From the NCBI GenBank assembly GCA_036770305.1, contig DAIPJL010000001.1, positions 1,899 through 65,898 of the forward strand: a stretch of DNA of 64,000 nucleotides, given 5' to 3'. The position numbers and the translations under genes are program-made. The notes below the pieces were generated by a model. The model was not told where the DNA came from, made no database searches, and saw only the letters and a list, made by a program, of their open reading frames with translations. How positions within the stretch are numbered: position 1 is the first letter of the stretch; every line of letters starts with the position of its first letter. This stretch comes from Bacteriovoracaceae bacterium (lineage in GTDB: Bacteria > Bdellovibrionota > Bacteriovoracia > Bacteriovoracales > Bacteriovoracaceae). Positions 46,440 through 64,000 of this stretch are shown piece after piece.

Positions 46440-46817
46440 ATGCGTAACATTCTCATCGCTCTTATCCTTATGACCGCAGCCCTCCCTGCCTTTGCACGCG
46501 CCCGACTTTGCCCGGCCGGAAGCGAGGTGCTCGTCAGCTGCACCGCCACTGCGACTCTGCCCTTGGTACCCTTCGTCGCCGTCTGCGCCATCGACGAAGA
46601 TGCCTTCATCGTGCTCGATCCGGGTGCCGGCCGCCAGCCGATGAGCTACCAAGCCGCCGCCCGTGCCTATGAGACCATGACCACTTGGTACGCCAAGGCC
46701 GGTGCCGCTGCTGATAATCTTAAACTTGAAATTGATCACGAAGCACGTGGGCGCAGCAACGCCGTACTGAGCTTTGACTCGGTTTTTGGTGGTGTCAGCC
46801 GATTCCTCTGTCGCTAA
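46440..46817 (+). CDS. Small secreted hypothetical protein
   Basis: ATG at 46440 preceded by AAAGGA. Signal peptide MRNILIALILMTAALPAFARA. 4 Cys. Confidence 0.55.
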   Translation: MRNILIALILMTAALPAFARARLCPAGSEVLVSCTATATLPLVPFVAVCAIDEDAFIVLDPGAGRQPMSYQAAARAYETMTTWYAKAGAAADNLKLEIDHEARGRSNAVLSFDSVFGGVSRFLCR

Positions 46818-46827
46818 TATCCCCGCA

Positions 46828-48171: not shown

Positions 48172-48178
48172 GCCATAC

Positions 48179-50350: not shown

Positions 50351-51279
50351 ACAAGGATTTTCTTTCTAATTCCGAGAAGAATACCGAAAGCGATTCCGGC
50401 GCCCTGGCTAATTTGTGAGACGTATAGAAAGCTAGCAGCCTTTACAAGAGATAGGCGAGTACGCGAGTTAAGGAGTCGCAGGTTCCTCACCTGAGAGAGT
50501 CCCCACGCTGCCATGGACAGAGGGTAAAGTTTTGGGAAGCTTATGAGGGTTGCAAGCCCGAGCCAGCTTATTGCGATCCCGGCCAAGTCGCTACTCTTAG
50601 TGTGAAAGCGCTCTCCAAGAGATCCCTCCATCTGAAGAAGAGCATATTGTTGAGCGATACGGAAGTCGTACTCGGGCAGCCTGTGGAACGGTAAATGTTT
50701 GTTGTGGGTAAAGGTAGCACTGGGAACCAGTTCAATTGCGATTCCACGCTTTGAAAGGTCTAATCCCAGTCGTACATCCTCGAGTATGCGGTGTTCCGCC
50801 GGCCAAGATACCGGGAAGTTGAATGCACATAGGCTGCCATAGATGAAAGCTATGTTGGATGTGTGCTCGTGTCTGTGTCTAAGGAGGGCCATCTTGAGCC
50901 GCGTTGCCGTCTGTGAGCTATCGGAGCCACGTACTAGTCCCATTAGTGCCACCGGGGCTTTTGCCTCTGCGAGCCTCGTCCTAATTTCTCGAACGGTGCC
51001 AGGATCAAGCACGACGTCTGTGTCTACGAAAATCCTCCCTTGCCACTTTGCGAGTGTGCCACCGAGGTTACGAGCGGAAGCTGGTCCCATATTTTGTGGA
51101 TTTCGTATGAGTCGAATTTGTGGATTGTTTTGTGCAGGAAGCTGATCCTCGGAGGAGCCGTCGTCAGAAATTATCACTTCATCTAGAGGTTCTAGCTGAG
51201 GAAGAATCGATGCCAGAAGGCGGGAAGTATGTTGCCGGGCATTATAAGCCGGTATGATGATTGAAAGGGGAATCCCCAT
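50347..51279 (-). CDS. GT2-family glycosyltransferase
   Basis: 310 aa. LSIIIPAYNARQH...IISDDGSSED...FVDTDV. C-terminal TM helices. ATGA overlap with the downstream fusion gene. Confidence 0.85.
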   Translation of the reverse strand: MGIPLSIIIPAYNARQHTSRLLASILPQLEPLDEVIISDDGSSEDQLPAQNNPQIRLIRNPQNMGPASARNLGGTLAKWQGRIFVDTDVVLDPGTVREIRTRLAEAKAPVALMGLVRGSDSSQTATRLKMALLRHRHEHTSNIAFIYGSLCAFNFPVSWPAEHRILEDVRLGLDLSKRGIAIELVPSATFTHNKHLPFHRLPEYDFRIAQQYALLQMEGSLGERFHTKSSDLAGIAISWLGLATLISFPKLYPLSMAAWGLSQVRNLRLLNSRTRLSLVKAASFLYVSQISQGAGIAFGILLGIRKKILV

Positions 51280-51382
51280 GTAGTCACGGCCAGTGTATTG
51301 TTAATACTATGATTTTACCTGACTTAGTAAAAAAGGTCGATGTCGAAATTTCTCCGGATGTTAATCGGGATGTGTCATCACA

Positions 51383-52012
51383 ATGTTAAAGCTAGATGAC
51401 TTCGTCATCCGATTCGCAAGAGAGCTCCGCTTGCCTCTCCGAGAGATCCTGCGTATCCAGCAACTGGTTCAGCGTCACCCTCGCGTAAACTGGGACGACG
51501 CTCTAGGAGAATCGCAGCTGCGGAGTAAGCTAGAGCTCTGTCGGATGTTGCACGAAAATGACATAAGGCCGGATTTCATACAGATCCATGCGGGATGGAT
51601 CGGCTTGACAGCCTATCTCCTTCGTCTGGAGCCGAAGGCGCCGAAGAAAATCCAAATCATCGATCTGGATCCAGTCGCACTCGCCGCAGCACGGGACTTC
51701 TTAAGTGGGGTCGAAGTTTCTGTTCTTCAGGTAGACGTGAATACAGCGCCGATACCTGATGACGTCGATCTTGTGGTGAACACGTCCTGTGAGCACCTCC
51801 GGGATTTCTCGAGCTGGCTCGATCGGATTCCGCAAGGCGTACTATTTGCTTGTCAGTCGAATAATATGGTCGGGATCCATGCGCATATTAACTGCAGTCC
51901 TGATCTCATCCACTTTCAGGGATATTTCTCTAAGAGACTGATGATCGACACGTCTGTGGTGGATATGCCGGGAGGAAATGGCTGGCAGCGCTTCACCGTT
52001 TTGGGGCGCTAG
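51383..52012 (+). CDS. Class I SAM-dependent methyltransferase-like protein
   Basis: 209 aa. Motif I-like IHAGWIGLTAY, acidic beta2 end IIDLDP, DLVVNTSCEHL. Confidence 0.55.
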   Translation: MLKLDDFVIRFARELRLPLREILRIQQLVQRHPRVNWDDALGESQLRSKLELCRMLHENDIRPDFIQIHAGWIGLTAYLLRLEPKAPKKIQIIDLDPVALAAARDFLSGVEVSVLQVDVNTAPIPDDVDLVVNTSCEHLRDFSSWLDRIPQGVLFACQSNNMVGIHAHINCSPDLIHFQGYFSKRLMIDTSVVDMPGGNGWQRFTVLGR

Positions 52013-53526
52013 CGCTGTCGCCACCATCGTAGGGGAGATATGGGGTCCCTGAGGAAGTTTCCGATCGCGAGCGGAATTTCGGGGTCGAGGTAGTTCAAGT
52101 AGAAAATGCGAGCGCTCACTTCGAGCAGGAGGCGCCGTCGAATCGCACTCCCGCGGCCCTCTTGACGTGCCACTGGCTGCGGAAGGTGATAAACAGCGCT
52201 TGGGCAAAGAAAGAACCGAAGGCCTCTGATGTGTGCACGGTAGCCGAGGTCTGTGTCTTCGAAGCCGTAGAAAGTGTAGCACCGACGGAAGCCGCCGATG
52301 GCGAAGAATGTCGAGCGCTTCATTACGAGGGCGTAAGTGCAGGTGAACTTCCAGCGATCCGGCCGCTCATTCCATGCTGTGGAGCTGCGGAAGAATTCTT
52401 CCCAGTACGCGTTTTCATAGTACCCATCTAGCGGAGCACCTAGTCCTTGCCAGTCCTGCTTGAGGAAGAGGCGCTGTGCCATGACGATATCGTGTTTGGC
52501 ACTGGCGGCGATGAGGTCTTGGAACGCCTCTGGCGGCACGAGCATGTCTGCGTCGAGGAAGCATATGACGTTCCCACTGGCAAGGTCTGCGCCGACGTTC
52601 CTGGCGATTCCTGCGCGATACTGTGCGTCTCCCATTTGGCGAGGTGCCGTTCGGGCGAGGTGGACCACTGTTAAGGAGAACGTCGCCGTCTGGGTTGCTG
52701 CTTCCCGAAGGTACCCAGACGTCTCGTCAGTGCTTCCGTCATTAACGACGAGGACTTCGAGGCTGAGTCCCGTCGCAGGGGATAGTCGTGACAGTTGCTC
52801 AAGTACCGTAGGTAGCGTATCGATGTTGTTATAGGTTGGGATGATGATGGACACATCGGGTTTCTTAGGGGCTCCGCGAATCACCTGAGTCGGTTGGGGG
52901 AAAAGCTCTAGAGTGTCGGGCGTTCTTTTGTCGTAGCGATCGAGGCCGGGGAAACCTCGCACCTGGTGGCCGGTTGACCTAAGGACCTTCTCAAGGACTG
53001 AGACGAGCTCTCCGGCTGAAAGCAACCGTACTGATCCAGTGGCATGGTTTGCGGGTAGCAAGAAGAGCTTCGCCCGGAGATCCGCGGCGATCTCCTCGTA
53101 GGTCTTAAGTAGTTTTTGACGCGACTCTGGCACGACGAATGCGACGAACTGGTCTCCTTGACGCAGCCATGTGTCGAGCTCCTCTGAGGGCTCCGCGGGG
53201 GCGAGCAGCGCGTGTATCACGGGAGTGGTTTTTACGAGAGCCAGGGCCGCTTCCCGATAAATGACGACGGGGGTCATGTCTCGAAGTTGAATCTGCGATG
53301 CTAGCTCCGGAACGTCAAAATGGTAATGTGCGTTGCACGGAATGAGGACATGAGTCGCACCGGCGCGACGAGCTTCGCCTAGCTGTGAATCGAGAGCCTG
53401 TGGCATAGTGCCGGGACGACAAAAGCCGAGGTCGGTGCAGAAGCTGCAAGCCAGTGGACAGTTCGGCAATAGATTTAGCCGATAGACCAAATTTCCGACT
53501 TCGGGGAGTGTGGAGGAGGGCGTCAT
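52009..53526 (-). CDS. Two-domain protein: N-terminal CX3CX2C (radical-SAM-like) domain plus C-terminal GT2 glycosyltransferase
   Basis: 505 aa. C23-P-L-A-C27-S-F-C30 (nt 53437-53460). From about residue 235: VSIIIPTYNNIDTL...VVNDGSTDET...FLDADM. Confidence 0.7.
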   Translation of the reverse strand: MTPSSTLPEVGNLVYRLNLLPNCPLACSFCTDLGFCRPGTMPQALDSQLGEARRAGATHVLIPCNAHYHFDVPELASQIQLRDMTPVVIYREAALALVKTTPVIHALLAPAEPSEELDTWLRQGDQFVAFVVPESRQKLLKTYEEIAADLRAKLFLLPANHATGSVRLLSAGELVSVLEKVLRSTGHQVRGFPGLDRYDKRTPDTLELFPQPTQVIRGAPKKPDVSIIIPTYNNIDTLPTVLEQLSRLSPATGLSLEVLVVNDGSTDETSGYLREAATQTATFSLTVVHLARTAPRQMGDAQYRAGIARNVGADLASGNVICFLDADMLVPPEAFQDLIAASAKHDIVMAQRLFLKQDWQGLGAPLDGYYENAYWEEFFRSSTAWNERPDRWKFTCTYALVMKRSTFFAIGGFRRCYTFYGFEDTDLGYRAHIRGLRFFLCPSAVYHLPQPVARQEGRGSAIRRRLLLEVSARIFYLNYLDPEIPLAIGNFLRDPISPLRWWRQR

Positions 53527-53664
53527 GGCTGGGCGCTATGTGATCTCGGTGATGTTTTCAACAGCAGGATTTTTAGCTGGTCCTCCGAGTGTCACCAGCT
53601 AGGACATGCTACATTAACCTGTGGTTGAATTAGAAGATAACTTTTGTGTCTAGAAAGGTGTTGC

Positions 53665-55068
53665 ATGCATGACGATGCGGGGTACAGCCTCGAGCTCGTA
53701 AGGGCGCGAGCTCAGGAACTCCAGAAAGTCTCTCCAACTTTTTGTTTGGCGAAGTGGACGCAGTCGACGGTGCTGCTGCAGAACGGTTTGACACATTCCT
53801 GCCATCACCCCGCGCGGCACAGAATCTCTCAAGCAGATCTCGTGAATAATCCGCAGGGACTACACAATACGCCAGTGAAGCTCAGGGCTCGTTCTGAGCT
53901 CCTGCGCGGTAAGCAGACTCCCGAGTGCAGCTATTGCTGGAACATCGAAAACCTCAATCGTGGCCATATCTCGGATAGGATTTACAAATCGACCTACAGC
54001 TGGAGTTTCCCTCGTCTCGAGGAGATTCTGAGTTCGGGTTTGGGACAAGAAATAGCCCCTTCGTACTTAGAAGTTTCATTCGACTCGACGTGTAATGCGA
54101 AGTGCCTTTACTGCAACCCGGAGAGCTCATCCTCGTGGGAGGCAGAGATTCGTCGGTTTGGGCCGATGTCGCAAGTTGAAAAGCCGCTGTACGACCTAGG
54201 GGACATGCATAAGCGGGGTGCGCTTCCGATACCGCCGGAGGAGCCGAATCCGTACACCGAAGCATTTTGGAAGTGGTGGCCGGAAATTTATCAAAAGTTA
54301 ATGGTCCTGCGCATTACCGGGGGCGAGCCTTTATTATCGAATCATACGTGGAGGCTTATCGAGGAGGTGCTCGCCTCGCCGAGGCGGGAGCTAAGATTCG
54401 CAGTGAACTCCAATCTTTGCATCCCTCGCTCCCTCGTCACTCGGCTCGTTGATCAGATCAACGCCCTCGCAGGCAAGATTCACTCGTTCGAGGTTTACAC
54501 GAGTCTCGAGTCGGTCGGGACGCAGGCGGAGTATGTCCGCTACGGCATGCGTTTCGATGACTTTCTGGAGAACTGTCACTACGTTCTGGATCACACTCCG
54601 CCCTCATCTCGGCTGCACTTCATGACGACAATAAACCTGCTGAGCGCTCCGAGTTTCCTCGGCTACCTAGAGCTGCTTCGAAATCTTCGACGAAAGTATA
54701 AGGTCTCAAAAAATGACTTTCGTGTGCGCACGTTCCTGAACTATCTGCGCTGGCCACAGTTTCTCTCGCTGTCGCTCCTTCCGCAGCACCTCAAGGACGT
54801 CTACGCGGATGAGTGGGTTGAATTTGTGAAGAAGCACCTCGTTACGGCTTCCAGCGGTGATGCCGTGTTCTACGAAGAAGAGCTCGATCAGGTCGAGCGT
54901 CTCGTGGCCTACATGCAGACCTGCGTCCCTGAAAAAAGAGACTTCGAAAACTTCAGACTATTTATTACAGAGATAGACCGTCGTCGTGGTCTTGATTTCG
55001 TGGCAACGTTCCCGGAGCTGCGAATTCTATTGGAGCGGGGATACTTCGGAGAGCTCCGAAGGAAGTAG
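53665..55068 (+). CDS. Radical SAM enzyme with N-terminal Cys-rich (twitch-like) extension
   Basis: ATG at 53665 with an AAAGGTG RBS. CNAKCLYC (CX3CX2C, nt 54091-54114) and LRITGGEPLL (GGE motif). Four additional N-terminal Cys (FCLAKW, SCHH, ECSYCW). Confidence 0.8.
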   Translation: MHDDAGYSLELVRARAQELQKVSPTFCLAKWTQSTVLLQNGLTHSCHHPARHRISQADLVNNPQGLHNTPVKLRARSELLRGKQTPECSYCWNIENLNRGHISDRIYKSTYSWSFPRLEEILSSGLGQEIAPSYLEVSFDSTCNAKCLYCNPESSSSWEAEIRRFGPMSQVEKPLYDLGDMHKRGALPIPPEEPNPYTEAFWKWWPEIYQKLMVLRITGGEPLLSNHTWRLIEEVLASPRRELRFAVNSNLCIPRSLVTRLVDQINALAGKIHSFEVYTSLESVGTQAEYVRYGMRFDDFLENCHYVLDHTPPSSRLHFMTTINLLSAPSFLGYLELLRNLRRKYKVSKNDFRVRTFLNYLRWPQFLSLSLLPQHLKDVYADEWVEFVKKHLVTASSGDAVFYEEELDQVERLVAYMQTCVPEKRDFENFRLFITEIDRRRGLDFVATFPELRILLERGYFGELRRK

Positions 55069-55073
55069 CTCGT

Positions 55074-56273
55074 ATGACTGAAGCCTCATCTCTCGACATC
55101 GTCATTCCCACAGGCCACCGTCGGAAATCTCTCGCGAGGCTATTGTCTTCGATTCGGAGACAGGAGAAACCTGGCACATGGAGAGTCGTCGTAGTCGCCG
55201 ACGGAACTTCGCTCGACGCGGAGGCCCTGAGGATTATCGAGGTTGAGCCGGCGATCGAACTCGTGCGGATCTCTCGCGGTGGTGTGAACCGTGCGCGGAA
55301 TGCGGGGCTTAGGAGGTGTCGATCAGACTGGGTCTTGATGCTCGATGACGACGTCGTGCTGCCGGAGGGATACCTCGGAGCGCTTCTGGATCGCATCGGG
55401 CAGGAGACGCGGGTGGTGGCGGTTGGCGGCATCTACCTACCCAAGGAGGGTGCCGTGTCGGCGGCGACTGCCTATAATTATATCGCGAGCAGTTGGGTCA
55501 GGAGTGCGACGCGCTTAGACGGGACAACTTTTGCGCTGCTCGGTGGAAATGCTTGCTACCATCGAAGACGGCTTGGGGAGCGGCTAAGGTTTGCGGAGTG
55601 GATACATTTCGGTGGGGCAGAGACAGAGTTGAATCTGCGTCTCATTGAGCAGGGGCTAGAGCTGGGCTTCGATCCGGCGCTTCACGTGTACCACGACTGT
55701 GAGGTTGGAATACTGGGACTTGTTCGGAAGGGGTTCGCGCAGGCCCGAGGACGATCCTCTCTTGAGGGTCGGATTTCTTCGGCCGTGCTTGCTCTTACCG
55801 ACATCGCGAGAGTAGAAGATCAGCGCCCTGGAGTCCGTGCGTATTTCTTGGGATACGACCTTTTCAATTTCTGTCGTGCCCATAATCTTCTGAGGCATTC
55901 GGACGGCTACGAACTCCGCTTTCACCAGGCGATCATCTGGGGTGGGGAGCAAATTTTTAGGTCGTCTGGCATCGAACGAATTTGGGGCCTAGGCGTATCT
56001 CTCATGCGCGCGATGTTAAATTCCCTCGTTCGGTTAAGGGACTGGGTTCGGTGGCAGGTGCCACCGCAGTGTCGTGCCCTTGTGACTTGGGTTCGGTGGC
56101 AGGTACCACCAAAGTACCGCGCCTTAGTGATATGGGTTCGGTGGAAGACTTTACCCATAGTGGTCATCGTTGTGATATCGGTGCCATGTGCCTTTTTGCA
56201 GATACCGGTGTTTCTCCCGAGAGAGCGACTTTCGGATCTTCGAACGCAGATCCTCAGAAAAATACTAGGATAA
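55074..56273 (+). CDS. GT2-family glycosyltransferase with repeat-containing hydrophobic C-terminus
   Basis: 399 aa. LDIVIPTGHRRKSL...VVVADG...MLDDDV. The C-terminal segment contains the 45-bp tandem repeat and a TM helix. Confidence 0.8.
   Translation: MTEASSLDIVIPTGHRRKSLARLLSSIRRQEKPGTWRVVVVADGTSLDAEALRIIEVEPAIELVRISRGGVNRARNAGLRRCRSDWVLMLDDDVVLPEGYLGALLDRIGQETRVVAVGGIYLPKEGAVSAATAYNYIASSWVRSATRLDGTTFALLGGNACYHRRRLGERLRFAEWIHFGGAETELNLRLIEQGLELGFDPALHVYHDCEVGILGLVRKGFAQARGRSSLEGRISSAVLALTDIARVEDQRPGVRAYFLGYDLFNFCRAHNLLRHSDGYELRFHQAIIWGGEQIFRSSGIERIWGLGVSLMRAMLNSLVRLRDWVRWQVPPQCRALVTWVRWQVPPKYRALVIWVRWKTLPIVVIVVISVPCAFLQIPVFLPRERLSDLRTQILRKILG
56043..56150 (+). repeat. 45-bp in-frame tandem repeat (2 full copies plus a partial third)
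   Basis: TGGGTTCGGTGG... recurs at 56043, 56088 and 56133. Encodes WVRWQVPPQCRALVT / WVRWQVPPKYRALVI / WVRWKT... Confidence 0.9.
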
Positions 56274-56308: not shown

Positions 56309-57235
56309 ATGAACTATCAGTACTTTCATGAAGATCATTTTAAATGGGGATTCGACGCCCGTAGCTATGGGGCGAGGCGCACTTCATCAGAGGAGTTCTG
56401 GTGGAGTTTTTCGAAGGCCCCAGTCATCGTCCCATCATTTCGAGACGCCTGCTTAGAAGCTTGCAGGATTATTGTTAGAAACTCCTTAAGCCTTGGGCGG
56501 CCGATTACCCTATGTCTCAGTGGTGGTATCGACAGCGAAGTGGTAGCGAGATGCCTAAGAGAGATTGGTGCAGATTTTCAAGCGATCATTTATGAGTATC
56601 CCAACCAGCTGAATCAGCATGATGTACGAATGGCGCTCGATCTGTGTAAAACGCTAGGGATTCCATTTCGCTTAGAACAGTATGATATCCTGCGAGCGCT
56701 CACCGTGGACGCGAAAGATTGGTTGGATCGCTACAATGTGGTTAGGCCTTACCTGTATGTCTACTACGATATGATCCGACGTGCCCCGGGATATCCGGTC
56801 TTTTGCGCAGGAAATATTCAGCTCGAGCCATTCGTTCAGAGGAATTTTGATTTCGATAACCCGCCACAACTTGTGTGGAGGGAGTATGATCAGGACCAGG
56901 CCCCAACAGCTGCTCTGTGGGAGGATGGGGTACCAGCGGTCACAAGATTTTATCGGTTTACAGCGAACCTTTTAAGTTCTTTTCTAGAAGATCCGCTAGT
57001 GAAAATGTGGACTCAGTATCACGAGAGCCTAGGCTCAGCTCATAAGATGCACGACTTTAAGATATTCATTTATGCGCGTCACTGGCCTGAGCTTAAATCC
57101 AGACCTAAATTTACGAGTTATGAGCACATTAACCCACTTCATAAGTTTCTTCGCATTCAGCGCTCTTTACAGTTTAGAGAGCAACAGGTCCATGTGACAC
57201 TCGAAGAACTCCGATCTTCTCTAGGATTGATTTGA
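56309..57235 (+). CDS. PP-loop (N-type) ATP pyrophosphatase superfamily protein
   Basis: 308 aa. PP-loop LCLSGGIDSEVVARCL. No asparagine-synthase glutaminase domain. Low GC. Confidence 0.7.
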   Translation: MNYQYFHEDHFKWGFDARSYGARRTSSEEFWWSFSKAPVIVPSFRDACLEACRIIVRNSLSLGRPITLCLSGGIDSEVVARCLREIGADFQAIIYEYPNQLNQHDVRMALDLCKTLGIPFRLEQYDILRALTVDAKDWLDRYNVVRPYLYVYYDMIRRAPGYPVFCAGNIQLEPFVQRNFDFDNPPQLVWREYDQDQAPTAALWEDGVPAVTRFYRFTANLLSSFLEDPLVKMWTQYHESLGSAHKMHDFKIFIYARHWPELKSRPKFTSYEHINPLHKFLRIQRSLQFREQQVHVTLEELRSSLGLI

Positions 57236-57838
57236 GTGAGCCTTAGAAGAGTTCAACTCATAAGAGATGGTGTTCAGAAGTTATGTGATCCAGTCGTTTT
57301 GCGTAATTTCTACGACACCCTTGCGGAGATTCACTGCTCTCGTGATTCAAAGAGGTCAAACTATACCCAAGATGCTCTGGACTTAACGGGGCATGCTCTC
57401 TTTGATCTCGCCGTGGATGAGAACAAAAACATAGGGACGTTCTGCGGTGTTTATAATGGTGGAAGGTACCCTGCAGGGGTCTATCGATTGCTGAATCGAG
57501 TGTATGTGACACCACATTTTCGTAATCGCCACGGATTGCACATGGCACTTGCAACAAAGTACTTGTTGCCGGCGCAATATGAAGAAATCTGTGATCGATC
57601 AGATTTAGTATTCGTTTCGCGGGAAGGAGCCCTGGGCAGAGAGTCTCTTGGGCGCTGGCTCAGGGTGCACTGGGGGCATTCCGCATGGCGCGTTCATCCT
57701 CGCTACGTTCAAGTGGTGCCCGGGGTTAGAAACAAAAGAACTTTTCAAGCTATCGCTTATCAGTGCATCAGAAAAACTGACTGGTTTTTTGAAGAGTTAG
57801 ATGATGCCGAATGGCAAATGCTTCCAGAGGGTGTTTGA
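57236..57838 (+). CDS. Hypothetical protein, possibly GNAT-fold acyltransferase
   Basis: 200 aa. GTG start immediately after the previous TGA. LNRVYVTPHFRNRHGLHMALATKYL resembles GNAT motif A. Weak call. Confidence 0.35.
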   Translation: MSLRRVQLIRDGVQKLCDPVVLRNFYDTLAEIHCSRDSKRSNYTQDALDLTGHALFDLAVDENKNIGTFCGVYNGGRYPAGVYRLLNRVYVTPHFRNRHGLHMALATKYLLPAQYEEICDRSDLVFVSREGALGRESLGRWLRVHWGHSAWRVHPRYVQVVPGVRNKRTFQAIAYQCIRKTDWFFEELDDAEWQMLPEGV

Positions 57839-59169
57839 TGAGTCATGTCTCGCGCATCGGTATCACGCTGTGGTTTGACGATGAATCTCGGGATCTCTTG
57901 TCCATCAGCCTAGTCTCTATTCTTATGCAGGTTCAGCGAAAGAGAGTACCGCTCAAAATTGTGAAAGGTTTCCTATCGGCATTTCAGATCCAGCATCAAA
58001 GTGAGTACACACTCTTGATCCGAGCTGGTCATGTTTTTAAATCGAACAGATGGTACGATGAGCTTGTTCAGTTTACAGACCAGAGAGTACCTGCGATCGG
58101 CCACATAATCGCAAGGCCAGGTGAAGCACTATCTCTTCATCCGCAGTTGATGTTATTTATGACGCACCATTTGACCTCGATTGCTGCAGCGGTCATCAGT
58201 TGCAAGTCATACCGGCTTTTCGAGAGAAGTGATAATAATATCCACGATGATTACACGCCGCTCTGGGTTCGATCGACACAAGCCCCTCAGGAAAGAGCTG
58301 ACTCAAAGGTATGCGAGTCAATTGCAGCGGGAGCACTTGAGTTAAATCGTGAAATTCTTAACTGGCCATGGTCATACCGTAGACTGAAGCATGACATTTC
58401 TACCGATACGCCGTTACATCGTGCGGAGCATGTAAATAGGTATATCTATGAGATCGAGCGCCAGAGAAGTCTTCTCTATCCCTTTAATAACGAACCCCAT
58501 GTTGAGCTAGAGCTTCCGACCCTTGCTCACGTCATGGGCGTTGCGAGTGGACTAAAGCTCAATGCCCTGACGCACAGGTCAATCAATGATAAAACGAGAT
58601 TCACCTTTTTTGATATCAGCAGGCTGAGTCTGGAGTTCCGAGGTCGGATTAATAATGACTGGGATGGAAAGGATTACGAATCCTATGCTTCCGGAATAGC
58701 GAGTGGCTATGATGCTTCTCTAGTATATATCTCAGCCTTTCGAAGTTCGAGACAAGTCGAATGGCTAGCGTCACCCACTTTCGTAGAACATTGGAGGTTA
58801 TTCAAAGAGCTTCCAAAGCAATACATCCGGCACGATATTGTAGGCCACGAGAGAAAGAAGATTTTAGCTCACCTGAAGAAGGAGCCGTCGTTTATTTGGT
58901 TTAGCAATTCCTTTACATCCCAGAGTGCAGTTTTCATGAAGAGCTTCGGCCAGCTTTGCGAGCTTTATCTCAGATTCTCAAGTGAGGTAAGTGCCCTCAA
59001 CGAGGACTCGTTACTTTTTGGCTACTCACCTCTCGGCGAAGCGATGTCGAAGCCCATGACACCAAGGGAAATGATCGAGAGTTTTTCTTTTGACCATGCT
59101 TTGTTCATACGGTCAGTGTGCGTCGGCGGCACGCCGAAAGAGCTTATATTCGAGGGAACCGACTCTTGA
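57838..59169 (+). CDS. Hypothetical protein (443 aa), unknown function
   Basis: ATG at 57838 overlaps the previous stop (TGATG). No recognised motif. A possible Rossmann-like segment (HVMGVASGLK...FTFFDIS). The 3' end overlaps convergent pepM by 26 nt. Confidence 0.6.
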   Translation: MSHVSRIGITLWFDDESRDLLSISLVSILMQVQRKRVPLKIVKGFLSAFQIQHQSEYTLLIRAGHVFKSNRWYDELVQFTDQRVPAIGHIIARPGEALSLHPQLMLFMTHHLTSIAAAVISCKSYRLFERSDNNIHDDYTPLWVRSTQAPQERADSKVCESIAAGALELNREILNWPWSYRRLKHDISTDTPLHRAEHVNRYIYEIERQRSLLYPFNNEPHVELELPTLAHVMGVASGLKLNALTHRSINDKTRFTFFDISRLSLEFRGRINNDWDGKDYESYASGIASGYDASLVYISAFRSSRQVEWLASPTFVEHWRLFKELPKQYIRHDIVGHERKKILAHLKKEPSFIWFSNSFTSQSAVFMKSFGQLCELYLRFSSEVSALNEDSLLFGYSPLGEAMSKPMTPREMIESFSFDHALFIRSVCVGGTPKELIFEGTDS

Positions 59170-59974
59170 GGGATGAAATTTCTTCGTAGTCCATGAACTG
59201 AAAAAGCTCCTTCATAGACATTAGCCCCTCTTCAGGTGCACTAGAGTACTTTCTTATGTGTTCCGCGACTTCTAGTTGGGCCCTGATAGCAGCGCGCATT
59301 CCTTGATTGGCCCAAATTACTCCGCGTATTGCGTGCTCGAGTAGTAGATTAGATGGAGGCAGTGGATAGGTCGTAGGACAAACGATCACTGGGATTTCAC
59401 CTGAAATCGAATGGCAAACTTCTTGGATGTGGTCGAAACAGTCACGGTTGGAATGAATGAAAATGGCATCGGCGCCTACCTCGTGGGCTGCGCGAGCACG
59501 CCGATAGACGGCATCCGCACTCTCTCCACGAATTAGTCCCTCGAGTCGTGCAACGATGAGCATCCTAGAGCGCAGGGCGAGGGATGCTTGAATCTTCTCA
59601 ATAAAATCGCCTTCCGTTGCACCAATTTGCGCACCGGTCTGAAGACTGTTGTTTTTTACACCAGCCTTATCCTCGATGACGATCCCAAGTGCACCAATTT
59701 TTTCAAGGCGCTTAATAAGATAAGCGAGCTTTTCGATGGAGTTAAATCCATTGGTCCCGTCGACTAAGAGCTTCAGATTCGAGGTCGAGCTAAGTTGTAA
59801 GCACGTGTCGAGGATGTGCTCCGGTCCGAGTTCCTCACTGTCGCGAATTCCGTGACTGGTCGCTACACACAGAGATGAAACCCAGCCAAAATCGAAGCCA
59901 GTCTGGGAAGCAACGCGTGCAGAAATTGGATCGTGAACTTCATAGAAGTGAACGATTTCGTTCGGCTTTAGCAT
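59144..59974 (-). CDS. pepM: Phosphoenolpyruvate mutase (isocitrate lyase/PEP mutase superfamily)
   Basis: 276 aa. Aligns end to end, by eye, with my recollection of PEP mutases (ISARVA..GF...VDGTNG...). Carries the discriminating motif IEDKAGVKNNS (EDK-X5-NS, nt 59645-59674), plus IVARLE, GADAIFIHS and VIWAN. Confidence 0.85.
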   Translation of the reverse strand: MLKPNEIVHFYEVHDPISARVASQTGFDFGWVSSLCVATSHGIRDSEELGPEHILDTCLQLSSTSNLKLLVDGTNGFNSIEKLAYLIKRLEKIGALGIVIEDKAGVKNNSLQTGAQIGATEGDFIEKIQASLALRSRMLIVARLEGLIRGESADAVYRRARAAHEVGADAIFIHSNRDCFDHIQEVCHSISGEIPVIVCPTTYPLPPSNLLLEHAIRGVIWANQGMRAAIRAQLEVAEHIRKYSSAPEEGLMSMKELFQFMDYEEISSLKSRFPRI

Positions 59975-60768
59975 TGTTGCTCGTATTGGGTATGCGGCAG
60001 CGCATTTGATCTGGTGCGGATAAGCCGAACTAGAAGCATCGCGGGGTCAAACTCATGTCGATGGCACGCAAAGTTGGCCCGTGAGGGAAAAGCATGGTGA
60101 TTGTTGTGCAAAGATTGGCCCCAGGTAAACCATGTGAGCCACCGTATGTTTCGTGAATTGTCACCAGTTTGCTGAGGCCGAAGGCCTGGTTTGTCCATGT
60201 GACAGAAAAGATTAATGATGTTTTCTTGATGGATGCTGTAGAGCATAGGCAGGGCGATTAAATTAAGTCCGATGTCCAGTGGAATAAGAACGGAGGCGGC
60301 AAGAGTGAGGTGAATCAAGGTTTCGTAATTTCGGTGTAGCCATTTCTGCCAAGGATCTCTCGCGAGATTTTTTGCGTGTTGGAGACTGAATTTACGATGA
60401 TCAAATCTTATCTGCCAACCGAGGTAAGAGGACCACTTCCCGTTCACAGGAGAATGAATGTCCAGAGAGGTGTCAGAATGTATGTGATGAAGGCGATGTA
60501 GTGCTACCCAGAAAATTGGCGATCCCTGTCCTCCCAGTGCTCCAAGGAGGGAGATGATTTTCTCAATCCGAAGGCTGGTTTTAAAAGATTTGTGAGAGAG
60601 ATATCTGTGAAGCCCGACGGCTACACCTAAGCCACTTATGAGAGTCCAGCCTATCAAAATGAGCAAGATGCTAGAAAGCTGAGGAGCACTGAGCAATCGG
60701 AATAGTGCGTAGAGCCCCACGAGGTGAATAGGGATAATGACACGAGTAAAGTGCGGAGATAGTTTCAT
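59968..60768 (-). CDS. Membrane fatty-acid desaturase family protein (short form)
   Basis: 266 aa. Three His boxes HRYLSH, HRLHH and HNNHH in the acyl-CoA desaturase arrangement. Four hydrophobic segments. Confidence 0.85.
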   Translation of the reverse strand: MKLSPHFTRVIIPIHLVGLYALFRLLSAPQLSSILLILIGWTLISGLGVAVGLHRYLSHKSFKTSLRIEKIISLLGALGGQGSPIFWVALHRLHHIHSDTSLDIHSPVNGKWSSYLGWQIRFDHRKFSLQHAKNLARDPWQKWLHRNYETLIHLTLAASVLIPLDIGLNLIALPMLYSIHQENIINLFCHMDKPGLRPQQTGDNSRNIRWLTWFTWGQSLHNNHHAFPSRANFACHRHEFDPAMLLVRLIRTRSNALPHTQYEQQC

Positions 60769-61481
60769 GAGAGTTGTTTTTTTAACAAGAAGACTTCTTC
60801 GTACATCTCTTCAGAGATTTTTGAGCTAATGGATGATGAGAGAATTTCCGTTCCAGGCAAAATAAGATCACTTAGCTGCATCATGTTGTTTGCCCCGTTC
60901 CATGGGTATCCCATAACGAGCATGGTTAGGCCCTTTTTCGTTGCGGCATAGCCGTGGGGCATACTCCCGTTAAGTACAAATGCATCATGGTGCTCGTTGA
61001 TAAACAACTTTTCACCTGATTTGTTTAAAAAAAATATACCAGACGTATCACCGTCGAGCACAAGTCGTAGCTTTAATTCAAGCTTTGAGGTGTTAGAAGG
61101 GGCGATATCCACATGAACTGGGATGGATGTATTTGGTGCCACATGTAAGATACAACACCGTGGTAGCGGTTTCATCCAGCTAAAGAAGCATGACTCAAGG
61201 ATTCTGCAAGCTTCGGGCATTTGAACCGCAGCTTCGGTCCAAGGCAATAATGCTGAAGATGTCACAAGACCGGATACCATGAGGTTCGAAGGTTTTTTTT
61301 CGGTTTCGTAATTTTTTTGGGGCCATAGGCGAAGGATGTGAGAGGCACGAAACTCGTCAGGATACCAGCCACTCAGATCATCGAGGAGTGGACGAAGCTC
61401 CGAGTTAATCTTCAGAACGTCTTCAGGACCAATTCCAAGCTTCGAAAGAGAGATTCCGGCAAAGGCAATATCCTTCGTCAT
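60765..61481 (-). CDS. Cupin-fold Asp/Asn beta-hydroxylase (AspH/LpxO)-like oxygenase, paralogue C
   Basis: 238 aa. ILHVAPNTSIPVHVD (HxD) ... LKLRLVL ... GSMPHGY (distal His). ATGA overlaps on both sides. Confidence 0.6.
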   Translation of the reverse strand: MTKDIAFAGISLSKLGIGPEDVLKINSELRPLLDDLSGWYPDEFRASHILRLWPQKNYETEKKPSNLMVSGLVTSSALLPWTEAAVQMPEACRILESCFFSWMKPLPRCCILHVAPNTSIPVHVDIAPSNTSKLELKLRLVLDGDTSGIFFLNKSGEKLFINEHHDAFVLNGSMPHGYAATKKGLTMLVMGYPWNGANNMMQLSDLILPGTEILSSSISSKISEEMYEEVFLLKKQLS

Positions 61482-62308
61482 ACCTTATGAGCCTCGTTCC
61501 ATGTGCTAGAGTTTAACTCAGTATTTGCGATGATTCGCTGGATCTCTGACGGAAGTATGGTTTTACCAGTCAAAGCCTCAATCACCTGCTGAACCGCACT
61601 TTGGGGGAAGTGTGTTCCTCCTGCCTTCACGATAGCAGCAAGGTAGTGGTTAGGGTCTACTGAGCTTTCCGTCAATGTGTCTTTGAAGTCGCCGTAGGCG
61701 ATACGCCCATTGCGAAGATACGAATTAGTTTTGAAGAAACTCAGTCGGCGATAACCAAGGGCGGAGAGTCTAAGATTAAAATCAATGAAGTCTACCGTAG
61801 ACTTTTCGCTAAGTGAGAGGTCTTTGTGCTTTTCGAGTGTAAGTAAGTCCTCGCCTAGATACTCCATGACGAGAGTTTGTGTGACGTCATCTTTCTCAAG
61901 CAGGAGAGGGCCGTGGAAACCGTTAAGTGCACTGAGAATCTCTGCTTCCTTCCGATAGAAGAATCTCAAGACGTCGGGCGATGATTGTGTCAGAGGAGTT
62001 CCGCCGACTGTGATCCCGTGAGGGTGGAAGATTTTTACGACTTTTCTTTCGGCAGGATTAATCAAGATGCTGGCACTCGACCCTATCGAGGCTTTCAATG
62101 TCTTGGTTCCGTCGCGGAGAATAGGCTTGCTGTGGGGGTGTCTGAAGACCTTGAAGCCTCTTCTTTCCCAGCTCGCAATAAGATCGCTAAACTGGGCTTC
62201 CTCTAAACTCGTGTGTGAGGAAAGATTCCTAGTCGCCGAGATTGTTGAAATTCCCACAAGGCCAAATCCTTTTATCAATGTGGTCGACAGGAAGTCTCGT
62301 CTGAGCAT
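61478..62308 (-). CDS. Protein-kinase-like-fold protein with twin-arginine-type N-terminus
   Basis: 276 aa. AAGGAG RBS 6 nt upstream. MLRRDFLSTTLIKGFGLVGISTISA (RRxFL plus h-region). Kinase-like strands KVVKIF, EAEILSAL, LVMEYLG, YGDFKD, but no HxD catalytic loop. Confidence 0.4.
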   Translation of the reverse strand: MLRRDFLSTTLIKGFGLVGISTISATRNLSSHTSLEEAQFSDLIASWERRGFKVFRHPHSKPILRDGTKTLKASIGSSASILINPAERKVVKIFHPHGITVGGTPLTQSSPDVLRFFYRKEAEILSALNGFHGPLLLEKDDVTQTLVMEYLGEDLLTLEKHKDLSLSEKSTVDFIDFNLRLSALGYRRLSFFKTNSYLRNGRIAYGDFKDTLTESSVDPNHYLAAIVKAGGTHFPQSAVQQVIEALTGKTILPSEIQRIIANTELNSSTWNEAHKV

Positions 62309-62523
62309 TTCGGGCTCCTTGTTGATTCTGATAAACTAAGGTCATTTTACTATACAACGGGTCAGTCACTTTTCTTAAAAGAAGTGTGGTTGTGTTTATA
62401 ATCACTTGGCTAAGAGAGAAATTGAAATTCAAAAAATGTCTGAGCGAGCCTCTAGTTATATTAAATGCTTATGGTGGCAACGCTCGTGGCTATATGGAGG
62501 TAAGAAAATTCTAGTTTCTAGGC

Positions 62524-63168
62524 TTAAATCGACAGGTCGCAGAACCTGTCTGGATTTGCAATAAAATGCTCGTGATTTATGTCTGCAACGATGTGATCCC
62601 TGAATTCGGTTCCATTGTTTAAAACTTCGTGGAGAAGGTCTATTCGAACTAAGTAGCCGGCTCCCGAAGCGGGGAGGTGATATTTGACATTACCGTAGAG
62701 CATCACTGCGTCCGGATTTGTGTTGATGGGAATAATAAGTCGATATCTTGCGCCGTTCTTTCCACTTGCGTCTTTGTGCGGAGGGCTACCCCTCGAACCC
62801 GGCCAAATCCGCAAAACTCGAACACGAGAAGGCTCCAGGCAGGCATCTTGAAGTATGCGTAGTAGTTCTTGGAAGCCGCCGACGCAAGCTGACGTCTTGA
62901 TTGTTTCAGGTCCTCGATTCGCGAGAAAGTCTCGCATTTCTTGAAGCTTTTCAGGGGAAAGGGTGGAGTTGAAAACAACCTGACCGCTGTAGAACCCGTC
63001 AGCGACCTCTCCGGTGCTACTCGTGAGAGCCCAGCCGCCGTATCCTGGATGTTTCAAAACGATAGGGAAATTTTCAGTCACATACTTGAGGTCCTTGCGG
63101 AGTTGCAAGATATCAAACCGGAGTTTGAGTTTTAAAATCGGATTATCATTTAACATCACATGAACCAA
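62524..63168 (-). CDS. Cupin-fold AspH/LpxO-like oxygenase, paralogue B
   Basis: 214 aa. VLRIWPGSRGSPPHKD (HxD), RYRLIIPINT, LLHEVLNNGTEFRDHIVAD. An alternative ATG at 63156 gives a TGATG junction with the upstream gene. Confidence 0.7.
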   Translation of the reverse strand: MVHVMLNDNPILKLKLRFDILQLRKDLKYVTENFPIVLKHPGYGGWALTSSTGEVADGFYSGQVVFNSTLSPEKLQEMRDFLANRGPETIKTSACVGGFQELLRILQDACLEPSRVRVLRIWPGSRGSPPHKDASGKNGARYRLIIPINTNPDAVMLYGNVKYHLPASGAGYLVRIDLLHEVLNNGTEFRDHIVADINHEHFIANPDRFCDLSI

Positions 63169-63842
63169 TCTAAGAAGTTTTCAGAAGGCCTTCCATGAAC
63201 AATAAGATGCACTCTGTCTTGGTCGCTGAAATTAACTACTGCGTGTTCGTGTCGGGTATTGAGAGAGAAGGCGACACCGTTCTCGAATGGAACGTATCCA
63301 AAATCCTTAAACTTAAAAAACGATCCCGCCGGATTATCGAGGGCGATGTTGAGCCAGCAGAGGCGGCCCTCATTCGGTTTCGACTTCCCATCCCGGTGTG
63401 GTCGTGTAAACCCCTTTGGGCCAAGAACCATGAAGCGAACTCTCTCGAGCCTCTCGTACGGGAGTGACTCTATGAATTTTCGTGTTAAGGGACAAAGAGT
63501 TGAGCAGTTTGTCCAAGCATATGGGACTTCGGATTCGTCTGCCCATGCCCCGTAGCGAACGAAGTTATCTACCTGCTGATTACCTAGTCCGTGTAGCGCG
63601 ACCGCTTTCCATTTGTAGCTAACAGAGTGAGGGTAGGTGTTATGGTTGCTGACCAGGAGTGAGCGAATGCCTTGGTATTCTGCGAGAATATCGGTCACAG
63701 GAATTTGTTTTGAAAACTTTAGAGCGACTAGTGCCGATGATTGGAGTTGTTCTAGCGAGAGGCTACTAGCACTTGTGGCTTTGAGATAAGCGGGAGACTG
63801 ACAGTCACTAAAAAACGAGCTAACTTCTTCTGGGAAAAGCAT
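63156..63842 (-). CDS. Cupin-fold AspH/LpxO-like oxygenase, paralogue A
   Basis: FMVLGPKGFTRPHRD (HxD), CWLNIAL, RHEHAVVNFSDQDRVHLIV. Start at ATG 63842 (MLFPEEV...) or TTG 63878. Confidence 0.65.
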   Translation of the reverse strand: MLFPEEVSSFFSDCQSPAYLKATSASSLSLEQLQSSALVALKFSKQIPVTDILAEYQGIRSLLVSNHNTYPHSVSYKWKAVALHGLGNQQVDNFVRYGAWADESEVPYAWTNCSTLCPLTRKFIESLPYERLERVRFMVLGPKGFTRPHRDGKSKPNEGRLCWLNIALDNPAGSFFKFKDFGYVPFENGVAFSLNTRHEHAVVNFSDQDRVHLIVHGRPSENFLDWFM

Positions 63843-63902
63843 GATACAAAGATGTATTTCAGCGAGACGATATCGCAAGAGGAAAATGAGGGGAATCGCG
63901 TA

Positions 63903-64000
63903 ATGAATTTAATTAAATCGACCTCGGGTCTGTTTAAAAATGATCTTTATCAAATTCCCTTAATCGAACTCGATTTTGATTCAATGAGCCTTTGCATCTC
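63903..64000 (+). CDS. 5' end of an unidentified CDS running out of the window
   Basis: ATG at 63903, open to the window end (MNLIKSTSGLFKNDLYQIPLIELDFDSMSLCI...). Divergent from the cupin genes. Too short to classify. Confidence 0.3.
   Translation, partial: MNLIKSTSGLFKNDLYQIPLIELDFDSMSLCI

Follow-up and report, generated by a model that had tools for sequence, protein, structure and literature searches.

Organization of the locus

The window analysed is a 64000 nt stretch of a Bacteriovoracaceae genome, in which a pepM-like gene forms the last member of a four-gene minus-strand operon (Table 1). Examination of the ORFs and their junctions bore out the layout described in the initial annotation: the desaturase gene overlaps pepM by 7 nt, the cupin C gene overlaps the desaturase gene by 4 nt and the first gene overlaps the cupin C gene by a further 4 nt, with an AAGGAG ribosome-binding site 7 nt 5′ of the ATG at 62308. 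In the intergenic region upstream of the operon there is a sigma-70-like match (TTAAGA-18-TATAGT, 62378–62349), and the number of promoter-like matches in this region was not above shuffled expectation.

Table 1 Features of the pepM operon and its surroundings, in window coordinates
Feature	Position	Strand	Remarks
Left part of low-GC island	46774–56273		GC3 0.49–0.64
Convergent three-gene block, lowest-GC sub-island	56309–59169	+	GC3 0.45–0.50
PepM/Ppm-clade protein, divergent	59144–59974	−	276 aa; last gene of operon
SCD-type membrane di-iron fatty-acid desaturase, short	59968–60768	−	266 aa
ORFan, possible AspH-type cupin (cupin C)	60765–61481	−	238 aa; H123-x-D125 ... H176
ORFan with N-terminal twin-arginine RRDFL motif	61478–62308	−	276 aa; first gene of operon
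Intergenic region upstream of operon	62309–62523	−	215 nt
AspH-type cupin-like protein (cupin B)	62524–63156	−	210 aa from ATG 63156
AspH/Asp_Arg_Hydrox-family cupin (cupin A)	63156–63878	−	PF05118 40.5 bits, cutoff 22.6
FkbM-family methyltransferase, 5′ end	63903–64000	+	Continues to window-equivalent 64745 on L004

The assignment of a membrane desaturase was upheld, both by PF00487 (62.1 bits) and by an alignment with mouse SCD1 (4ymk, E 3e-12) in which the HRxxSH, HRxHH, NxxxH and HNxHH boxes all align; its hydrophobic segments span residues 10–54 and 150–179. The first gene had been described as a Tat-signal kinase-like protein, and its RRDFL motif is indeed of the Tat type, but the kinase label was not sustained, as the protein matches nothing in Pfam, NCBIfam or the PDB even at E≤10; it found only itself in a protein database search and has an AF2 pLDDT of 37. 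Cupin C (AF2 pLDDT 32), previously labelled AspH/LpxO-like, likewise has no Pfam, NCBIfam or PDB match and found only itself among 5.8e9 proteins, so that what survives of the label is a weak paralogy to the PF05118-positive cupin A (BLASTP E 0.097), with an R..P..HxD..H pattern common to both and in register. Cupin B, the start of which overlaps the upstream stop as TGATG, scores just 14.9 bits with PF05118 (E 0.024) and matches cupin A at E 0.025 by BLASTP; the exact protein is also encoded on the Logan contig L004.

On the other side of the operon, the convergent block, which shares the lowest-GC sub-island with the operon, comprises a PP-loop ATPase (56309–57235) and two ORFans, of 200 and 452 aa, the latter running 26 nt into the 3′ end of pepM. 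Encoded in the left part of the island are an FAD amine-oxidase-like protein and four GT2 glycosyltransferases, of which one, 723 aa long, has a polytopic domain at its C-terminus and another carries a fused CX3CX2C domain; a methyltransferase-like and a radical-SAM-like protein are also encoded there.

Identity and divergence of the PepM-like protein

The initial annotation had called the last gene a PEP mutase, and domain profiles, profile ranking, signature motif, active-site residues and rooted tree all agree with that call. The predicted protein matches PF13714 (PEP_mutase) with 142.6 bits over profile positions 7–239 of 240 and carries the EDK-X5-NS motif reported earlier, as IEDKAGVKNNS; under the operational definition of PepM (PF13714 aligned over 70% or more of its length, together with EDKX5NS; PMC8942020) it is therefore classed as a PepM. 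Among NCBIfam models TIGR02320 (PEP_mutase) ranks first at 188.9 bits, ahead of PPH (117.8 bits) by 71 bits and of prpB (75.3 bits) by 114 bits. As with other PEP mutases (Mytilus edulis 1m1b, Streptomyces 5unc), the alignment is of fold length, reaching residues 15–288 of 1m1b (E 1.4e-34), and the frame remains intact throughout the PepM fold, C-terminal helix included. Of the 13 Mytilus active-site residues 12 are kept, with W44, S46, L48, D58, D85, E114, K120, N122, S123, R159 and H190 retained and G47S and D87T substituted. A rooted tree placed the protein inside PepM in 74 of 100 bootstraps; a grouping with methylisocitrate lyase, one of the placements that would have spoken against the call, never appeared.

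Phosphonopyruvate hydrolase (PalA/PPH; TIGR02321, 2dua) belongs to the same PepM-derived clade, and the pairwise similarity to it (E 1.7e-33) nearly equals that to PepM. However, PPH has EDK-X5-TS rather than NS, the PPH profile scores lower and PPH falls outside the clade formed by our protein and Mytilus PepM in 74% of bootstraps.

Unlike typical PEP mutases, the protein is only 30–38% identical with any PepM, is a singleton with no sequence above 38% identity among 1.84 billion representative proteins, and does not reach the TIGR02320 cutoff of 319.55; its score is the lowest of all those tested, the Ppd-linked PepMs giving 245–370 bits. Of the 26 columns conserved at 95% or more, 24 are kept. 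Among 51 near-invariant columns 10 deviate; these include D87 (D87T), G91 (G91N) and P119 (P119V), which lie within or close to the active site and gating loop. Asp is also absent from the D87 position in 8% of PepM representatives, and this residue is merely a second-sphere water ligand (PMC7916636). These data indicate, at the level of sequence, an intact but highly divergent PEP-mutase-clade protein. The initial annotation did not remark on D87T, the sub-cutoff equivalog score or the terminal branch, which is the longest in the tree.

Partner genes and the genomic island

The canonical partners of PepM are absent from 66.5 kb, i.e. for 59 kb on one side of pepM and 6.5 kb on the other. When every window ORF of 120 aa or longer was scanned with Pfam, no domain of the ThDP, PLP-aminotransferase, 2-hydroxyacid dehydrogenase, HMGL-type aldolase or nucleotidyltransferase kind came up, and authentic Ppd, AEPT, NTP-transferase, aldehyde dehydrogenase and Fe-ADH sequences used as tblastn queries gave nothing better than E 0.03; nor is there a LicD-type transferase or nucleotidyltransferase for attaching phosphonate to a glycan. 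The earlier claim that no partner is encoded between 46.8 and 64 kb thus stands, with one correction, an FAD amine-oxidase-type oxidoreductase at 46774–48171. Comparison with other pepM loci, proposed earlier as a check, shows the context to be unusual. Among 25 well-flanked metagenomic PepM loci, Ppd was present in 22; of the other three, one had only a nucleotidyltransferase, one had AEPT together with a nucleotidyltransferase and one had a split transketolase; the nearest relatives of our protein have Ppd, AEPT or nucleotidyltransferases fused or adjoining, and the accessory genes of this operon occurred in none of the 80 PepM loci compared.

A coupling enzyme just past position 64000 had been offered as one explanation, and a canonical ppd and AEP transaminase there would have made the cluster an ordinary one. 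We recovered 2.5 kb of this sequence on L004 (overlap with the window 1939/1939 identical) and found neither gene; it encodes the remainder of the FkbM methyltransferase (Methyltransf_21, 46 bits; GC3 0.45), a GNAT protein (64785–65804, minus strand; Acetyltransf_9, 33 bits; GC3 0.84) and, from 65965 on the plus strand, a flagellin (Flagellin_N, 151.9 bits; GC3 0.71). The operon lies in a horizontally acquired, low-GC3 island of approx. 18 kb (46.8–64.75 kb) that adjoins the flagellin gene, with GC3 values of 0.45–0.64 inside as against 0.82–0.91 in the native DNA to either side; the right junction was independently assembled on L004. Within the island there are two compositional sub-blocks, suggesting mosaic assembly. 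Neither the island nor its position against flagellin had been noticed before.

Comparison with known systems

Partnerless ppm neighbourhoods are a recognized minority class, ‘pre-Ppd other’ (Li & Horsman 2022, PMC8942020), exemplified by GCF 842 (malate dehydrogenase plus fumarase) and GCF 540. As in that class, the Ppm here passes PF13714 and EDKX5NS with neither Ppd nor any of the seven known branch-point enzymes nearby. Those families, however, each supply an evident candidate (MDH, a PLP enzyme or a nucleotidyltransferase) and are conserved across several genomes, whereas pepM here has an SCD-type desaturase, AspH-type cupins and ORFans around it, in a locus unique in current databases.

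The island resembles flagellin glycosylation islands in that genes for glycosyltransferases, methyltransferases and modifying enzymes stand directly beside a flagellin gene in a block of foreign composition, but it showed no Maf/PseE, nonulosonic-acid or TPR-GT genes and is flagellar on one flank only; the link is positional only. One precedent for phosphonate on a flagellin glycan is the 2-AEP-bearing type A glycan on Clostridium difficile FliC, a case without pepM (PMC8861647).

Three HxD..H cupin-like ORFs flank pepM, and Fe(II) oxygenases recur in phosphonate clusters (HEPD, MPnS, HppE, PhnY* and, in PMC9296572, DfmD). Those enzymes, however, use HEP, AEP and other post-Ppd intermediates and not PnPy (phosphonopyruvate), and the cupins of this locus either belong to the Asp_Arg_Hydrox (PF05118) type or defy classification.

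Possible roles of the locus

Our preferred reading, which we advance tentatively, is that an active, divergent PepM in a foreign island has its reaction pulled by an unrecognized island enzyme towards a surface product. A genuine PEP mutase, co-translated with the SCD-type desaturase and two lineage-specific proteins in an island rich in GT2s, methyltransferases, radical-SAM-like proteins and AspH-type cupins, would still interconvert PEP and PnPy. The PepM equilibrium favours PEP (PMC8942020); since foreign islands normally bring their own pathway and no known PnPy-consumer is present, the pull would most likely come from an unrecognized enzyme of the same island. We favour one of the three AspH-type Fe(II) oxygenase-like proteins, which might oxidatively decarboxylate PnPy, a 2-oxoacid, to phosphonoacetate, with the PP-loop ATPase or a radical-SAM enzyme as alternatives; these candidates were picked on chemical plausibility, and cupin C matches no family. 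The product would serve to modify a glycan or lipid at the cell surface, the glycan of flagellin being one possibility.

It is rather unlikely that pepM serves an ordinary phosphonate pathway (e.g. to 2-AEP) with ppd, AEP transaminase and nucleotidyltransferase elsewhere in the genome. The source contig, at 68.4 kb, is only part of the MAG, the PepM identity is well supported and a surface-glycan type context is typical of AEP decoration (PMC6697681), but Ppd adjoins pepM in 22 of the 25 sampled loci, no partner lies within the long flanks searched, and a native, unlinked partner for a gene in a foreign island would imply that the host already had a phosphonate pathway.

Less probable still is a neofunctionalized member of the PEP mutase/isocitrate lyase superfamily that no longer makes a C–P bond and works, e.g. 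as a hydrolase, lyase or decarboxylase, on a different 2-oxo or oxalo acid alongside the desaturase and oxygenases. The lowest TIGR02320 score, the longest branch, the substituted near-invariant columns and the missing partners all fit such a switch, and PPH illustrates that small changes in this clade can alter the chemistry; against it are the retained PepM-specific N122-S123 (T-S in PPH), D58, K120, R159 and H190, the profile margins and the nesting within PepM.

That the gene is intact but a relic of a once-complete cluster in a mosaic island, contributing no phosphonate product, seems quite improbable: a partnerless, divergent singleton and two compositional sub-blocks would suit it, but not an intact frame, translational coupling to the upstream genes or the preserved, most conserved columns. 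We know of no precedent for a PepM used catabolically. We consider it highly improbable that the upstream oxygenases turn an imported or envelope phosphonate into PnPy for conversion into PEP, a route that would need no pulling enzyme given the equilibrium (PMC8942020) and would agree with the place of pepM after oxygenase-type genes and with a putative Tat-exported, possibly periplasmic protein, but for which we found no transporter, PhnW/PalB-type transaminase or phosphonate-catabolism regulator, and around which the glycosyltransferases form a biosynthetic context.

The non-canonical pathway that we prefer is a hypothesis, and as the PepM-like protein and the two ORFans of the operon are each singletons, comparison between genomes lends it no support. 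The locus is a new partnerless variant, of putative function, beyond the known ‘pre-Ppd other’ families, and its divergent pepM may mark a putative, as yet undescribed phosphonate route.

The pepM operon

The four open reading frames of the minus-strand operon (59144–62308) were recovered as described in the initial annotation, with overlaps of 7, 4 and 4 nt, and the ribosome-binding site AAGGAG that it had assigned to the first gene lies 7 nt 5′ of the ATG. A 215-nt gap separates the operon from a same-strand pair encoding two cupins, A and B, in which stop and start are fused as TGATG.

Features of the window and of its extension on Logan contig L004
Feature	Coordinates	Strand	Remarks
Housekeeping genes	1–46 kb		PilN, biotin carboxylase, TamB, Omp85, Lon, AlaRS, RecA, RecG, UbiB
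Left island part	46.8–56.3 kb		FAD amine-oxidase-like, four GT2, methyltransferase-like and radical-SAM-like proteins
GT2 with polytopic region	48179–50350	-	723 aa
GT2 with CX3CX2C domain	52009–53526	-	505 aa
Divergent neighbour	53644–55068	+	474 aa
GT2 with tandem repeat	55074–56273	+
PP-loop ATPase and two ORFans	56.3–59.2 kb
PepM-like gene	59144–59974	-	276 aa, EDK-X5-NS motif
Predicted SCD-type desaturase gene	59968–60768	-	266 aa; 7-nt overlap with PepM-like gene
ORFan, cupin-like ORF C	60765–61481	-	238 aa; 4-nt overlap with neighbour gene
ORFan with RRDFL	61478–62308	-	276 aa; 4-nt overlap
Cupin B	62524–63156	-
Cupin A	63156–63878	-
FkbM-type methyltransferase	63903–64745	+	on L004
GNAT	64785–65804	-	on L004
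Flagellin gene, 5′ half	65965–66531 (window-equivalent)	+	L004 2–568 (-); Flagellin_N 151.9 bits

Identity of the PepM-like protein

The PepM-like protein (the query) contains IEDKAGVKNNS, as had been claimed, and the EDK-X5-NS motif falls at E101-D102-K103-AGVKN-N109-S110; PPH (phosphonopyruvate hydrolase) has T-S at the position of N109-S110. This motif separates PepM from the remaining members of the ICL superfamily and, together with a PF13714 coverage of at least 70%, forms the operational definition of PepM (PMC8942020). Both features are present in the query, in which PF13714, the profile that the initial annotation had named as a check, scored 142.6 bits across almost its entire length (positions 7–239 of 240). 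Among NCBIfam models the query ranked PEP mutase (188.9 bits) above PPH (117.8 bits), methylisocitrate lyase (prpB; 75.3 bits) and CPEP mutase (33.2 bits). The score of 188.9 bits against TIGR02320 lies under the curated equivalog cutoff of 319.55, as do those of two calibrated Ppd-linked PepMs, and the calibrated Ppd-linked or Ppd-fused PepMs score 245–370 bits, all above the query.

The closest solved structure is that of the Mytilus PepM (E 1.4e-34). Of 13 active-site residues listed for that enzyme (W44, S46, G47, L48, D58, D85, D87, E114, K120, N122, S123, R159 and H190), 11 are identical in the query, the exceptions being G47S and D87T; D115 and K116 are also kept. Serine is found at the G47 position, as in the query, in 32% of PepM representatives, and the D87 column is Asp in 92% of them. 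D87 is no direct Mg ligand but holds a water that is bound to the metal (PMC7916636). The query sits 11 nodes deep among the PepMs in an NJ tree with 100 bootstraps, for which methylisocitrate lyase served as the root; it was never grouped with methylisocitrate lyase (0/100), PPH lay outside a query–Mytilus clade in 74/100 replicates and the query was basal to PPH plus Mytilus PepM in 23/100. The rooted tree and the profile ranking place the query in PepM and not with methylisocitrate lyase, oxaloacetate decarboxylase or CPEP mutase, in agreement with the original call. The query is nevertheless divergent: its terminal branch (0.80; median 0.37) is the longest in the NJ tree, and it agrees at 41/51 near-invariant columns (median 48), though at 24/26 of the columns conserved to at least 95%. 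Judged from its sequence, the query belongs to the PepM clade, keeps the catalytic core and is predicted to interconvert PEP and phosphonopyruvate (PnPy).

Other operon proteins and the neighbouring cupins

The product of the second-to-last gene matched PF00487 (62.1 bits) and mouse SCD1 (E 3e-12), with the His boxes HRYLSH, HRLHH, NxxxH and HNNHH all aligning, and contains two pairs of hydrophobic segments; PF00487, three His boxes and a 4-TM topology, which we used together as a test, were all found. The DesA equivalog score was 72, far under the cutoff of 400, and the protein is predicted to be an SCD-type di-iron desaturase.

The remaining two products are ORFans. The first-gene product (61478–62308) carries a twin-arginine motif, RRDFL, and its AF2 model has a pLDDT of 36.9. 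Since it gave no Pfam, NCBIfam or PDB match at E≤10, kinase families included, and a homologue search of 5.8 billion proteins returned only the protein itself, its earlier description as ‘kinase-like’ is unsupported. The AspH-type cupin assignment of ORF C has no profile match behind it: PF05118 was absent even at E≤10, the PDB sequence search was empty, the homologue search returned the protein alone and the AF2 model has a pLDDT of 32.2. What ORF C has in common with cupins A and B is an R..P..HxD..H pattern, which is in register in all three and on which the assignment draws. PF05118 scored 40.5 bits with cupin A and, as the one gain of a relaxed scan, 14.9 bits with cupin B (there taken as 62524–63168); PDB sequence searches with the neighbouring ORFans gave no match. 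In cupins A and B an Arg follows the distal His by approx. 10 residues, the usual position of the residue binding the 2OG C5-carboxylate. ORF C has no Arg there and instead carries Lys-Lys at +7/+8 from the distal His, a hint that this protein may use another co-substrate.

Search for partner enzymes and extension beyond base 64000

A Pfam scan of all window ORFs of at least 120 aa revealed no ThDP enzyme, aminotransferase, 2-hydroxyacid dehydrogenase or HMGL-type aldolase. The window was extended by a look-up with the ATG-start cupin B protein, which led to L004, a Logan contig of the sample that also yielded the window; this contig is identical with the window at 1939/1939 positions of the overlap and reaches 2.5 kb further, to window-equivalent 66532. 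Public gene calls on L004 omit cupin A and call a 90-aa antisense ORF (3066–3338, minus strand) instead. The added genes encode a methyltransferase, a GNAT and flagellin, so the ppd plus AEP transaminase pair for which the initial annotation had pointed beyond base 64000 is absent from this extension.

None of the PnPy consumers, i.e. Ppd, a PalB-type transaminase, a VlpB-type reductase or an FrbC-type aldolase, was found in 1–64000 or in the extension to 66532. Using as tblastn queries real Ppd, AEP transaminase (AEPT), nucleotidyltransferase, aldehyde dehydrogenase, Fe-ADH and B12-radical-SAM sequences from PepM relatives, we obtained only noise (E≥0.03) against window and extension, and a nucleotidyltransferase of the PntC/LicC/Fom1 type was also missing there, with neither an NTP_transferase or CTP_transf_like domain nor a tblastn match. 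The claim that a known PnPy-consuming partner is absent therefore holds across window and extension by both Pfam scan and tblastn.

A foreign island next to flagellin

GC3 is 0.82–0.91 in the core genes, falls to 0.45–0.64 over 46774–64745 and recovers on the far side, in the GNAT (0.84) and flagellin (0.71) genes, and the operon therefore lies within an approx. 18 kb compositionally foreign island with native DNA on either side. The island comprises two sub-blocks, 46.8–56.3 kb (GC3 0.49–0.64) and 56.3–64.75 kb (GC3 0.45–0.53). A chimeric assembly was rejected as the origin of the GC drop, given that high-GC3 genes resume beyond it and that the right junction recurs in an independent assembly. 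Signs of a mobile element, i.e. tRNAs, boundary repeats or an integrase domain, were not found in the island. The host lineage, on sequence comparison, appears to be without a close representative: the RecA of the window is 59–73% identical with those of mixed Bdellovibrionota, Myxococcota and Alphaproteobacteria MAGs, without synteny, and AlaRS is at most 48% identical with anything found.

The flagellin gene adjoins the island end, after the native-GC GNAT gene, and is preceded by a ribosome-binding site (caaggagga) and a sigma-28-like element, TCAAGTT-N12-GTCGAAAA. In its flagellin adjacency and its glycosyltransferases, methyltransferases and modifying enzymes the island resembles flagellin glycosylation islands, whereas the Maf, NeuB and TPR-GT markers of such islands are absent here (Pfam scans of the island proteins gave no MAF_flag10, NeuB or TPR domain), and the flagellin link is therefore a positional hint. 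The island could belong to the flagellin-glycosylation type of locus. For a phosphonate on a flagellin glycan there is one precedent, 2-AEP on the FliC glycan of C. difficile, whose genome is without pepM (PMC8861647); our literature search found no paper tying pepM to flagellar glycosylation loci, or to desaturases or cupins of this type.

The 505-aa GT2 begins with a domain of approx. 220 aa containing CX3CX2C (CPLACSFC), which points to fusion of the glycosyltransferase with a radical-SAM-like domain, and its divergent 474-aa neighbour contains CNAKCLYC with a Radical_SAM match of only 23 bits. Another GT2 (55074–56273) carries two to three copies of a tandem repeat, WVRWQVPPxxRALV, followed by a hydrophobic C-terminal segment. 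The 723-aa protein has a GT2 domain at its N terminus and, towards the C terminus, a large polytopic region lacking a Pfam match, and could be a membrane-acting synthase-type or GT-C-like fusion.

Comparison with other pepM loci

An exhaustive HMMER search with the query over 1.84 billion representative proteins gave 2061 matches, none with a pairwise identity above 40% and the full-length ones at no more than 38%; GTDB representative genomes, when scanned with the query, gave no match. As the PepM-like protein and both operon ORFans are database singletons, their gene linkage is beyond comparative test, and comparison of the locus, a singleton from a hot-spring MAG, is therefore uninformative; the metagenome sampled is that of a hot spring in Central India (PMC5214690).

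The survey of Li & Horsman could not assign 13% of 434 ppm neighbourhoods, the majority of those having Ppd, and the few ‘pre-Ppd other’ families without Ppd each had an obvious candidate enzyme (PMC8942020). We sampled 80 metagenomic PepM loci, of which 25 had flanks of 4 kb or more to either side. Among these 25, Ppd was present in 22, a nucleotidyltransferase in 20 and AEPT in 14; of the three loci lacking Ppd, one had only a nucleotidyltransferase, one AEPT together with a nucleotidyltransferase and one a split ThDP transketolase. Homologues of the desaturase, the cupins or the ORFans occurred in 0/80. The transketolase locus (L099, 9971–16251) encodes a 508-aa PepM with a C-terminal domain of no known type, a NUDIX protein and the split transketolase, with no Ppd, and fits the transketolase-type ‘phosphonofructose’ idea (PMC8942020).

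The closest relatives of the query adjoin canonical partners: P0003 lies beside Ppd and an aldehyde dehydrogenase, P0002 beside a B12-radical-SAM enzyme, and P0004, on a phage-like contig, beside a ThDP enzyme, an Fe-ADH and a cytidylyltransferase. The top HMMER relative (P0005, 674 aa) has an N-terminal tubulin-tyrosine-ligase-like (TTL, ATP-grasp) domain fused to PepM, which to our knowledge falls outside the usual PepM fusions with nucleotidyltransferase, Ppd or AEPT. On a phage-like contig with Phage_capsid_4 (L003, Logan SRR26786762, 43 kb), PepM is accompanied by a ThDP enzyme fragment, Fe-ADH, a cytidylyltransferase, NeuB and glycosyltransferases, and the set looks like a phosphonate/glycan module encoded by a virus.

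Interpretation

The initial annotation is confirmed as to PepM identity, the operon and the lack of a partner, and its interpretation is supported in part; ‘kinase-like’ is unsupported, and the cupin assignment at 60765–61481 draws on a shared pattern. The locus adds a new variant, one lacking a partner, to the known class of pepM clusters, and is a good experimental lead and not a demonstration of a new pathway. Nearly all biological C–P bonds begin with PepM, the equilibrium of which is unfavourable, so that the next enzyme sets the pathway. The reading that we consider most likely, though tentative, has a divergent but functional PepM and an unrecognised enzyme of the island that consumes its PnPy, since a foreign island would be expected to bring its own pathway.

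Some probability also attaches to a canonical partner being encoded unlinked elsewhere; an unlinked ppd, if present, would make the locus ordinary. It is doubtful that the PepM-like protein has been neofunctionalized and no longer performs C–P chemistry. That the gene is a relic seems improbable, and catabolic use, with the reaction running from PnPy to PEP as its equilibrium favours, very improbable.

Returning to an unrecognised island enzyme as the consumer, the candidate favoured on chemical grounds is an AspH-type Fe(II) oxygenase, which would take PnPy as its 2-oxoacid and decarboxylate it oxidatively to phosphonoacetate. It is unlikely, taken as a whole, that the foreign surface-glycan (possibly flagellin-glycan) island is a self-contained undescribed phosphonate route in which PepM is coupled to a non-canonical island enzyme, likeliest of this type; if true, phosphonate modification of a flagellin or envelope glycan or lipid would gain its first genetic basis. 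The adjacency to flagellin touches the C. difficile puzzle, in which flagellin bears 2-AEP and the biosynthetic genes are absent. PepM is known to be coupled in only about four ways, and a PepM in a self-contained foreign island without a known coupling enzyme is a concrete place to seek a fifth.
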